Below are positions 11,108 to 13,599 of a stretch of DNA of 14,641 nt, one piece after another. Source of the stretch: an uncultured Methanosarcinales archaeon (lineage in GTDB: Archaea > Nanobdellota > Nanobdellia > Woesearchaeales > CAZYIM01). The notes below the pieces were generated by a model that saw nothing but the letters and a program-made list of their open reading frames with translations, had not been told where the DNA came from and ran no database searches. Location of the stretch: the NCBI GenBank assembly GCA_964647565.1, contig CAZYIM010000051.1, forward strand, positions 1 through 14,641, given 5' to 3'. Positions within the stretch are counted from its first letter, which is position 1. Each line of letters begins with the position of its first letter. The position numbers were made by a program, and so were the translations under genes.

Positions 11108-12497
11108 TCAGCTAAACGGAGACTGTTCTGATGCAACACCTTTCAACATAGCACAAAGAAGGCCTCCTAGTCGAGGCTTATCAGATGGTGTCATGACATA
11201 ACTAGGCGGAGATGTATGGCCCTTTGCCTCTGCTTGTTCACATATTTTTCCAACCCAAGCATGCTTTATGTTTGGATTCTCACGCATATGCTCCTTGACT
11301 TCATCTTCAGTCATCTTTTCACCATCTTTCATAAAAAGTATTTCACCATTCTCGCCGAATGTCATTCCACCACCTTGACCATGATAAAAGGATTCAAAAG
11401 GTTCTACATTTCTGCCATCAACAATAATAGCATCCATCTGGCCAGTTGAGCATATTTCCATTGCAGAAGGTAGGTTAATTTGTGAATAAACATATGAGCC
11501 ACAGAAACCCAATTCTTCAAGAGTATGAAAGACGTTTTCTGTTAGTTCAGGACCTTTCAAATGGTAATTCTCATTCAAATCCTCGATAACCAAGACATTA
11601 TATATTTCCTCTGCTTTCTTTCCAGGAACTATTTTTCTAGGCGTGTCCAAGAATTTTTTTGAAAGTGGAATGTTAGAATCTTGTTCATAAGCAATATGGG
11701 TTGTATACTCTCTTATCTTCTCAGCTTCTGCCTTTGCATGAGCAATGCATCGTTCATCACCATTCGATATAATTTCAGCCAGCTTACCAAAAAGCAAAGT
11801 TTCAGTTTCATCTTTCTGTCCAAGGAACATAGTTTCACGCAAATCTTCATGTTTACTTAGAATAGGCGGCATCTCATAACCCCGTTCTTTCATATGAGTC
11901 ATCAACCTCAAATATAAACAGTCAAAATAGCTGTTATCCCGCTCTTCATGATTTTTCGAATGATCAAGACTCTTAAAAGAAAAGCTTTCATAGTCCATAA
12001 ACGCAGGATGATCGACAGATATACCACCTATACCCTTAAGGATTCCCTTTAGCCAAGCATCACGAATAGTTGGCTGCTGAATTAACTTTAGATAATCATA
12101 TCCCTCCGAAGATCCATATGATTTCTCACATAACTTTTCTCCCTTAAAGAACAACTCACTTCCAACATGTGAAGCGAACCAAGTACCATAATCAAAGGTC
12201 AGGTCCTCAAACGATGTATCTTTTGAAATTGCTTCAAAATTCCCCCCCGCGAGAATATTTCATGTCTCGATATTCATCAGTTATATCATCATGAACCAGA
12301 TATTTCCATATGTGCAATGAATAGTCATCTCCTAATCTAAGATTAAAATCAAATGGAATCACAGCCCTAGGCTTAAGGTCAAAACTCTCTGGATTAAGTT
12401 CTTTCTTTTTAACCAGAAGACCTGTTATATCTGAAAGAAACTGTATTTGTTCTTCTAATTGCTTATCCACACTTTTAGGTATGCCAAACCCATTCAT
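11108..12497 (-). CDS. Single hypothetical gene (~462 aa) interrupted by a +1 frame break near 12234-12248; C-terminal receiver-like domain
   Basis: ORF 12497-12234 has an SD (AGGGGT) and ATG. The frame of ORF 11108-12154 stays open upstream of its weak TTG start through to ~12259, overlapping the end of the first ORF. Removing one base joins them (...SRGG-NFEAISKDTSFEDLTFDYGTWFASHVGSELFFKG...). Confidence 0.7.
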
Positions 12498-12601
12498 AAT
12501 ACTACCCCTATATCAACAGAAGGAAATGCACATTTGTTTTTAAGGATTACTATTTTCAAGTACTAAATTATCAAAATATGAGAGTGAGATAAGGAAATTA
12601 G

Positions 12602-12614
12602 AAAAAAAAGAAAA
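12602..12614 (-). terminator. Oligo-T terminator after the tRNA 3' fragment
   Basis: TTTTCTTTTTTTT directly after the fragment's discriminator base. Confidence 0.55.
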
Positions 12615-12645
12615 TAGTGGGGGAAAGATTTGAACTTTCGACTCC
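12615..12645 (-). repeat. Intron-less tRNA 3'-end fragment (T-arm + acceptor 3' strand), diverged direct repeat of the tRNA-iMet 3' end
   Basis: Minus strand GGAGTC-GAAAG-TTCAAAT-CTTTC-CCCCACTA versus spliced tRNA GGAGGTC-GGTAG-TTCAAAT-CTACC-CCCCGCTA; followed by TTTTCTTTTTTTT. Confidence 0.85.
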
Positions 12646-12664
12646 TTTGAACCTTGTTTGACCG

Positions 12665-12678
12665 GGTAAATTTATAAA
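12665..12678 (+). promoter_or_regulatory. BRE/TATA-like promoter of the LAGLIDADG gene
   Basis: GGTAAA-TTTATAAA, 44 nt upstream of ATG 12723. The TATA octamer is palindromic, so it could also fire on the minus strand. Confidence 0.5.
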
Positions 12679-12722
12679 GTAAATCATTTTTCCAATGTTA
12701 AGAGCATAATAGTTGTTAAAAA

Positions 12723-13445
12723 ATGTTAAATAAAATTTTCCTGAACAAAAAAGATAAGTTAAAAGGATTAAAAATACCTAAGGAATCAACAGAAGATTTA
12801 GCTTATTTGTCCGGAGTATTAGCTGGAGATGGAAGCCTAGGATATAGACAAAATAAGAACGAATATTCTCTTAAATGTGTTGGAAATCCAAAAGATGAAA
12901 AAGATTTTTATTTAAACATTGTCGGACCTAAATTCGAGAAAGTATTCGGATTTATTCCAACAATGAAGACTTTCGATAAGAATACCACTTTCGGATTTAG
13001 GATATTTTCAAAGTCACTAGTTTGTTATTTAACTCAAACCATTGGCCTCCCGCTAGGACCTAAAAATAACTCATTAAAAATCCCTTCTAAAATCAACACC
13101 AATAAAATGTTATTAATGAATTTTGTGAGGGGTTTATTTGATACAGATGGATCAATTTCATTTAAAAAAAGGTATAAACAACACCCTTATTATCCTGTAA
13201 TCTCATTCTCCTCCAGAAAAGAATCCTTCACAAAGGAAATTGCAGCATTTTTGAAAGAAGAAGGGTTTAAAATAGTAGAGATTTATAACTATAAAATAGA
13301 AGATAAAAGAATGAAAACAGGATTCACAATAATAAATAGAATTGAACTAAATGGAAATAAGAATCTGTCATTATGGATGACAAAAATAAGTTTTTCTAGT
13401 CCAAAACATTTAGAAAAAATAAGAAAATATGGAAGGATTAAATAG
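12723..13445 (+). CDS. Free-standing double-motif LAGLIDADG homing endonuclease
   Basis: Two LAGLIDADG helices with acidic catalytic residues: LAYLSGVLAGDGSL and FVRGLFDTDGSI. No intein splice motifs. Stop TAG overlaps the last 3 nt of the antisense tRNA. Confidence 0.92.
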   Translation: MLNKIFLNKKDKLKGLKIPKESTEDLAYLSGVLAGDGSLGYRQNKNEYSLKCVGNPKDEKDFYLNIVGPKFEKVFGFIPTMKTFDKNTTFGFRIFSKSLVCYLTQTIGLPLGPKNNSLKIPSKINTNKMLLMNFVRGLFDTDGSISFKKRYKQHPYYPVISFSSRKESFTKEIAAFLKEEGFKIVEIYNYKIEDKRMKTGFTIINRIELNGNKNLSLWMTKISFSSPKHLEKIRKYGRIK

Positions 13446-13462
13446 CGGGGGGTAGATTTGAA

Positions 13463-13488
13463 TTCGGTAACAGTCCTTCCGTCTGCTT
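13463..13488 (-). other. 26-nt tRNA intron at position 53/54 (T-stem/T-loop junction)
   Basis: Relaxed BHB: central helix CGGT/ACCG, bulges AG|A and AA|T, intron helix AGCAG/CTGTT; removal restores GGTAG-TTCAAAT-CTACC. Confidence 0.9.
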
Positions 13489-13528
13489 CTACCGACCTCC
13501 GGGTTATGAGCCCGACGGGCACTCCTGG

Positions 13529-13560
13529 TTAGGCTATAGCAAAAAATTAATTTTGCTAAT
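13529..13560 (-). other. 32-nt tRNA intron at position 15/16 (D-loop)
   Basis: BHB: central helix GGGC/GCCT, bulges AG|A and AA|C, outer helix TG/CA, intron hairpin TAGCAAAA/TTTTGCTA. Confidence 0.9.
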
Positions 13561-13599
13561 CTGCCCCACCCCGCTGTAACCCTGAAGAAAGAATGGGCC

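Follow-up and report, generated by a model that had tools for sequence, protein, structure and literature searches.

The window, i.e. the whole stretch of DNA that was analysed, is a single 14.6-kb contig (14,641 nt) of an assembly of 2.68 Mb that is 87% complete and has a G+C content of 38%. Near its end lie a complete gene for the initiator tRNA-Met (tRNA-iMet), a separate fragment corresponding to a tRNA 3' end and, as the sole gene between the two, an open reading frame for a LAGLIDADG homing endonuclease of 240 amino acid residues that converges on the tRNA gene (Table 1). On the other side, two ORFs of 348 and 87 aa (11108-12497, minus strand) separate the fragment from a dihydrouridine synthase gene; neither of them had a Pfam match. 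In two related loci (L069 and L099), a dihydrouridine synthase gene directly follows the endonuclease cassette.

Table 1 Features of the tRNA-iMet locus (positions refer to the window)
Feature	Position	Strand	Basis or remarks
Displaced tRNA-iMet 3' relic, tRNA positions ~42-73	12615-12645	minus	starts GGAGTC; T-arm, acceptor strand, A73
ACCCGG	12667-12662	minus	
18-nt spacer between ACCCGG and AGTC	12661-12644	minus	
AGTC	12643-12640	minus	
Fragment T-stem 5' strand, GAAAG	12639-12635	minus	
Fragment T-loop, TTCAAAT	12634-12628	minus	
Fragment T-stem 3' strand, CTTTC	12627-12623	minus	
Fragment acceptor strand, CCCCACT	12622-12616	minus	
Fragment A73	12615	minus	
T-tract after the relic, probably the old tRNA terminator	12614-12601	minus	sequence
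Cassette end: ACCC, 12 nt, TTCAAA	12646-12667	minus	colinear with tRNA positions 38-59, no tRNA copy
Likely endonuclease promoter, GGGTAAA directly upstream of TTTATAAA	12664-12678	plus	sequence
Free-standing single-chain double-motif LAGLIDADG homing endonuclease, 240 aa	12723-13445	plus	Pfam LAGLIDADG_3
Working initiator tRNA-Met gene, anticodon CAT	13443-13575	minus	A1=13575, A73=13443
Intron 1, 32 nt, D-loop	13529-13560	minus	spliced alignment to intronless reference
Intron 2, 26 nt, between T-stem position 53 and T-loop position 54	13463-13488	minus	

The initiator tRNA gene and the endonuclease cassette

The working tRNA-iMet gene comprises 133 nt and is reduced to 75 nt after removal of two introns. 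The intron-free product is identical to the intronless gene of the relative G043 (locus L004) and folds into a perfect cloverleaf (-34.1 kcal/mol) with a T-stem of GGTAG/CTACC. T-tracts are located within about 30 nt after the gene. The boundaries of intron 1 are ambiguous by a few nucleotides, and the same site is occupied by introns in L009, L094 and L037. For intron 2, one common design was recognized in 23 parsed homologous introns: C48 together with the 5' strand of the T-stem pairs with six intron nucleotides located 2 nt before the 3' splice site, and a 3-nt bulge at the 5' site, mostly AAG, is followed by an inner helix. The exon-intron helix covaries, with CGGTAG:TTACCG in our case and CGGTGG:CTGCCG, CAGTGG:CTGCTG, CGATGG:TCGTCG and CGTTGG:CTGACG elsewhere. 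Its 6 bp differ in spacing from the canonical 4 bp between two bulges. Judged from these pairings, the T-loop intron looks functional and would fit the relaxed form of the bulge-helix-bulge motif only, not the canonical one.

A search of the window with ARAGORN reported no tRNA, and Rfam yielded no tRNA match between positions 12500 and 13700, neither at the gathering threshold nor at E-values up to 10. Both programs miss the intact tRNA-iMet gene because it is broken by two introns, and their negative results therefore say nothing about the fragment. For the genome as a whole, ARAGORN with introns allowed reported only 18 tRNA genes, 17 of them intron-bearing, and the Rfam tRNA model detected 10. 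Most tRNA genes of the source organism are hidden from standard finders.

The endonuclease ORF affiliates with LAGLIDADG_3 (PF14528; E-value 3.7e-9, 37.1 bits, cut-off 22.5). Its two motifs, LAGDGS and FDTDGS, are intact, and the residues G35-D36-G37 and D140-T141-D142 are invariant across 23 homologues. The closest solved structures were 1mow_A, a chimera of I-DmoI and I-CreI (1.9e-8), 2dch_X (1.2e-6) and the I-DmoI entries (about 1e-6). The ORF ends in TAG (13443-13445), the reverse complement of the last three bases of the tRNA; several homologous ORFs extend further, opposite the acceptor and T-arm of the tRNA, and stop at a TGA in the complement of the T-loop. Contigs from public runs span the junction between endonuclease and tRNA genes (run X4, 13313-13527; run X1, 12890-13458) as well as the junction between relic and promoter (run X3, 12433-12700). 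Other contigs of run X3 match the endonuclease core and turn into unrelated sequence at 12668 and 13429, loose ends which hint at a second genomic context for a near-identical endonuclease core in that sample. The genome that contains the window also encodes an endonuclease paralogue with 29% identity (C15:51291-51926, minus strand), located some 200 nt downstream of a further tRNA gene with several interrupting introns (~52160-52345, minus strand).

The endonuclease gene is preceded by the palindromic TTTATAAA (12671-12678, plus strand). Directly upstream of it lies GGGTAAA, in the position where, as we assume from the consensus, the archaeal BRE sits. The arrangement GGGTAA(A/T)-TATA is also present in L036, L039, L042, L063 and L068. 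Together, the two elements probably represent a BRE and a TATA box that face the endonuclease gene, not the fragment. The preliminary description of this DNA had considered the TATA palindrome and the T-tract as the signals of a short separate transcript; both elements are indeed present, but the putative promoter would point at the endonuclease gene.

Between promoter and relic lies the cassette end. Read in the sense of the tRNA, our cassette and the five others with an ACCC cassette end (L036, L039, L042, L063 and L068) have the same order of elements, namely a TATA box, (T)TTACCC, 12 nt, and TTCAA(A/T) or TTAAAT. The 12-nt stretches are alike among these ends (…ACAA[A/G]G) and unlike the tRNA of their own locus. 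ACCCGG, which had been noted as a recurrence of tRNA positions 38-43, was found as described but belongs to this cassette end that is common to five other cassettes. The motif being common to six cassettes, the true relic therefore starts at GGAGTC (12645). A reading of the 18 nt between ACCCGG and AGTC as a relic intron was dropped, since ACCC, 12 nt and TTCAA form the common cassette end.

Most related cassettes have a TATA box, about 13 nt and TGTCCAGTG on the tRNA-sense strand at the far side of the endonuclease gene. The motif often occurs in two to three tandem copies. It was observed in L034, L040, L041, L050, L056, L077, L079, L080, L091, L094 and others, and on both sides of the gene in L037, where a 22-nt direct repeat containing TGTCCAGTG lies on either side of the endonuclease gene. 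The motif may act as an operator, or represent a cassette end or the remnant of a target.

Recurrence in related genomes

A protein search detected homologues of the endonuclease in 186 of 401 genomes of the order, a tally that includes seven genomes flagged as unpublished; further loci came from a scan of named genome records. The dereplicated set consists of 45 endonuclease loci from Woesearchaeota-type (DPANN) genomes with proteins at least 40% identical to ours. Spliced alignment located a full-length tRNA-iMet gene at a distance of at most 700 nt from the endonuclease gene in 43 of these loci, with 38 tRNA genes converging on the endonuclease gene and five on the same strand. As to the other two loci, L063 is on a contig that ends at the endonuclease gene, and L050 shows no tRNA-iMet gene.

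One or more introns at mature position 39 or beyond are present in each of the 43 linked tRNA-iMet genes, 26 of which have an intron at positions 50-55. The comparison set comprised 30 tRNA-iMet genes sampled from relatives whose genomes lack a close homologue of the endonuclease; the adjacency of an endonuclease was checked directly for ten loci with 1.5-kb flanks and via per-genome scores for the others. Among these genes, 22 are intronless, three have an intron in the D-arm only and five have an intron at position 38 or later. The contrast between linked and comparison genes is large, in two sets that were drawn differently and consist of kin that are not independent of each other. The explanation that introns of the linked genes merely reflect intron-rich genomes was not supported, albeit by anecdote only: G015, with 31 detectable tRNAs, has an intron-bearing tRNA-iMet gene, and G043 and G016, with 8 and 12 detectable tRNAs, both have an intronless one.

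In six of the 43 loci (L033, which is our locus, L036, L039, L042, L047 and L068), a tRNA 3' end is kept beyond the endonuclease gene. The endonuclease ORF is thus situated between the working end and a displaced copy in our locus and in five further ones. The six relics match 17-20 of 20 positions, as compared to maxima of 13 in control strands and regions and 16 in shuffled sequences. In L036, a compensatory pair distinguishes the relic stem (GCTGG/CCAGC) from the working stem (GGTGG/CCACC). The relics of L039, L042 and L068 start exactly at the T-loop, which is the intron position of their working gene, and they are also followed by T-tracts. A decayed relic suspected in L034 was dropped; this stretch corresponds to the TGTCCAGTG motif, and the highest-scoring match (14 of 20) lies inside a coding region.

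The cassette is present in one genome of the genus g84 (G239, with tRNA gene, endonuclease and relic) and absent from two others. G292 has an intron-bearing tRNA gene and no endonuclease, and G083 an intronless tRNA gene followed by a different insert of about 950 nt and a 3'-half relic with a T-loop intron. The gene downstream of the G083 relic is the same as in G292. Given these three states, the 3' side of the tRNA-iMet gene is therefore a site of repeated replacement. The ORFs of the G083 insert (G083:C3; L145, L146) are on the other strand, and the relic is accompanied by a remnant that resembles the end of an endonuclease gene. Another locus (L011, G055:C66), which has no endonuclease gene in its vicinity, contains a 17-nt repeat of the tRNA-iMet 3' end about 100 nt downstream of the tRNA gene. 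In two records named Candidatus Aenigmatarchaeota and Candidatus Hadarchaeum (L087 and L100), an endonuclease gene lies beside a tRNA-iMet gene with multiple introns, owing either to a spread beyond the order or to mis-binning.

Intron position was also compared with the endonuclease tree, on which the 53/54 class requires 9 changes, as compared to 15.2 in shuffles. The close pair L038 and L084 has different introns. This loose fit and the divergent pair weaken the view of the intron as an immunity device.

Origin of the tRNA 3' fragment

The elements of the fragment were confirmed on the minus strand: the variable loop, the T-arm, the acceptor strand and A73, followed by the T-tract. T72, the pairing partner of A1, identifies the piece as being of the initiator type. 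Compared to the intact gene, the T-stem of the fragment differs at positions 50, 51, 63 and 64 with all five pairs kept, and the four differences form two compensatory pair changes (GAAAG/CTTTC versus GGTAG/CTACC). This observation of the preliminary description holds, and in a simulation of four random substitutions in the T-stem all pairs survived in only 1.7% of the sets. The fragment matches the last 20 nt of its own working gene in 17 positions; the maxima were 11 for the control strand, 11 for an upstream control and 14 for 200 shuffles. It also matches the tRNA-iMet 3' end of the relative G005 with 83% over 48 nt (E-value 6.7e-7), and the full-length tRNA-iMet gene of G005 has exactly the GAAAG/CTTTC T-stem. 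The check named in the preliminary description, for any related tRNA with this stem, thus spoke for an allele replacement. Both stem types are present among the tRNA-iMet genes of the order.

The acceptor strand of the fragment had been described as mismatching C3 of the local 5' end and pairing with AGTGGGG. This is correct for the letters of the assembly, but at base 12618, A on the minus strand (T on the plus strand), the entire contig depth of runs X1, X2 and X3 supports G (C on the plus strand); this depth is only 3.4-3.7, and contig ends are 6 nt away in X1 and X2 and 83 nt away in X3. The discrepancy may be a strain or minor variant or an error of the assembly consensus. The mismatch with C3 is possibly due to the same variant or error because of the G in the public contigs, and a partner starting with AGTGGGG is therefore not needed.

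Most likely, the 53-base piece is the displaced old end of an initiator tRNA gene that was stranded by a selfish endonuclease cassette. We assign a probability of roughly three in four to this reading, in which the fragment is the former 3' end of the tRNA-iMet gene and the cassette supplied the replacement end. The relic has a complete T-arm of the other allele type, hence the working 3' part with GGTAG/CTACC would come from a different lineage. That the two ends derive from different alleles is indicated by the compensatory changes and by the presence of the relic-type stem in the working gene of G005. The horizontal replacement of a distinct tRNA-iMet allele, one of two origins put forward in the preliminary description, is thereby favoured; the intervening endonuclease gene and the recurrence of the layout elsewhere point in the same direction.

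In the direction of the tRNA, the cassette would consist of the T-loop intron, the replacement end (positions 54-73), the antisense endonuclease gene with its promoter and the short cassette end. The endonuclease would cut an uninvaded tRNA-iMet gene, and an invaded allele would serve as the repair template from which the intron, the spare end and the endonuclease gene are copied. Since the cassette supplies a working end, the tRNA gene would stay whole, and the resident end would be pushed downstream, lose its 5' partner and decay. We infer the activity of the endonuclease, its cut site and which of the two ends is the native one, as well as a role of the intron, which may shield the working gene from the endonuclease. 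Several findings count against the model: only six of 43 loci keep a relic, our relic starts at about position 42 and not at 54 as in L039, L042 and L068, and it sits behind a cassette end in which TTCAAA is already present. Our layout is not explained by one clean homing event at 53/54 and suggests more than one event or an untidy repair. The joint of an endonuclease-free allele was not found in the contigs of four DNA runs over the region, contigs being prone to drop rare variants, and the 36 nt that follow the relic had no match in a metagenome scan.

The other origin put forward for the fragment was that of a trans-spliced split-tRNA piece, i.e. the 3' half of a split tRNA, or else a transcript of about 35-45 nt driven by the TATA at 12671-12678. 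The intact T-arm and acceptor strand, A73, the T-tract and a TATA box close upstream would all suit such a half, and a split initiator tRNA is known in Nanoarchaeum equitans. We nonetheless regard this origin as very unlikely. The 87%-complete genome contains a single tRNA-iMet anticodon arm (C51:13513), and a search for a 5' half starting with AGTGGGG and ending in a complementary trailer found none: no AGTGGGG is joined to a D-arm, and three other matches to the pattern have no tRNA continuation. A comparison of 12640-12700 with the own genome (blastn-short) gave no match of at least 12 nt over the leader on either strand; the listed non-self matches, of 12-16 nt, were all in query positions 2-37, the AT-rich TATA part. 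In addition, a complete tRNA-iMet gene with a perfect cloverleaf after intron removal adjoins at a distance of 776 nt, the motif next to the TATA box is conserved together with the endonuclease gene and on its upstream side, and the relics of L039, L042 and L068 are devoid of the T-stem 5' strand and unable to form a T-arm. Highly improbable, too, is a use of the relic as an alternative 3' exon that is spliced to the local 5' part, with the endonuclease gene inside a giant intron between them. With G at 12618, the acceptor strand of the relic pairs perfectly with the local AGCGGGG; however, T-tracts follow within about 30 nt after the working gene, and the relic has its own T-stem 5' strand, so the joint must precede position 49, before which no bulge-helix-bulge was seen.

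Two further explanations do without a replacement by the endonuclease cassette. The duplication could be the scar of a lost integrase-type element at the tRNA gene, with the endonuclease arriving independently. tRNA 3' ends are classic integration sites, G083 has its different insert of about 950 nt between the tRNA-iMet gene and a 3'-half relic, and the 17-nt repeat of the tRNA end in L011 lies about 100 nt downstream without an endonuclease gene. A mobile-element model of tRNA disruption has also been published for Caldiarchaeum (PMC3293823). Nevertheless, only the endonuclease gene, and no integrase or recombinase, is encoded between the copies, which are non-identical (17/20). The endonuclease gene converges on the tRNA 3' end in 38 loci, its stop codon in our locus coincides with the last three bases of the tRNA, and the cassette-end motif is common to five other endonuclease loci, all of which makes an integrase scar unlikely. 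A purely local origin, in which the end of the resident gene was duplicated and the copy then drifted without any foreign allele, would agree with L039, L042, L047 and L068, in which the T-stem 3' strand of the relic equals that of the local working gene. In our locus it is quite improbable: four random changes preserve all five pairs in 1.7% of cases, no selection for base pairing acts on an unpaired relic, and the relic-type T-stem exists in the working gene of G005.

Comparison with known systems and implications

Our endonuclease resembles I-DmoI and 2dch_X in its archaeal host and in a single chain that contains both LAGLIDADG motifs. I-DmoI and 2dch_X are encoded inside rRNA introns in sense direction, whereas our endonuclease gene is free-standing, outside the gene, on the opposite strand and beside a tRNA gene. 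In collaborative homing, which involves group I introns and phage protein genes, an ORF-less intron interrupts the target of a neighbouring endonuclease. As with this process and with free-standing phage endonucleases, the endonuclease described here is located outside its target and a nearby ORF-less intron may shield the host copy; in contrast, the intron is of the bulge-helix type and resides in a cellular tRNA gene, for which we infer the shielding.

The layout further resembles the mobile-ORF hybrids of fungal mitochondria, known from atp6 of Allomyces macrogynus and from atp6, atp9, cox2 and nad3 of Glomus. In these hybrids, an endonuclease ORF, mostly of the LAGLIDADG type, brings along a foreign 3' end of the host gene; the native end remains downstream, is not expressed in atp6 and cox2, and resembles relatives more closely than the inserted end does (PMC3630166). 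Common to these hybrids and our locus are the endonuclease, the presumed replacement 3' end and the displaced end downstream. Our host gene, however, is a chromosomal tRNA gene of an archaeon instead of a protein gene of mitochondria, the endonuclease gene runs antisense to it without an in-frame fusion, and the replacement end comes with a small, putatively protein-spliced intron. A stranded tRNA fragment together with an intron-bearing working gene and a mobile insert has been described for the tRNA-Thr of Caldiarchaeum subterraneum, where intron gain was linked to the insertion; that work reports a 5' fragment and a 1.8-kb recombinase element, as opposed to our 3' fragment and the 0.8-kb homing endonuclease insert (PMC3293823). 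With the split tRNAs of N. equitans, which include the initiator tRNA, and of Caldivirga, the fragment shares the solitary tRNA 3' part preceded by a TATA box; unlike these, it has no detected 5' half or complementary leader or trailer, and a complete gene is present. LAGLIDADG ORFs occur in group I introns of archaeal rRNA genes, some of them in Woesearchaeota (PMC6125680), and missing tRNAs have been discussed as possible split genes in a preprint on Nanobdellota. A description of an endonuclease cassette at archaeal initiator tRNA genes was not found in the literature searched, which mostly does not cover subscription journals.

Published models for the gain of introns at odd positions of archaeal tRNA genes, and for the fragmentation of these genes, involve integrating plasmids, viruses or transposon-like elements. 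In our case, a family of homing endonucleases is tied to one essential gene, and all 43 linked initiator tRNA genes bear introns. In genomes of this kind, the initiator tRNA escapes standard tRNA finders, and stranded relics of tRNA ends can be mistaken for the halves of split tRNAs. The fragment is an ordinary consequence of the cassette, and the cassette family is the more interesting part.

As a tentative extension of the cassette model, which we consider possible but doubtful, the stranded tRNA end may serve as the downstream homology arm of the cassette and not be mere debris. The small intron, the spare tRNA end, the endonuclease gene and the stranded end would then form one homing unit. 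Such a unit would be able to enter any initiator tRNA gene, with a repair that uses tRNA sequence only. A repair via the nearer copy of the end would copy the intron alone, and ORF-less introns such as those of G032 and G292 would thereby arise at odd positions of tRNAs. If true, this would constitute an endonuclease-driven route for the spread of non-canonical introns among archaeal tRNA genes.
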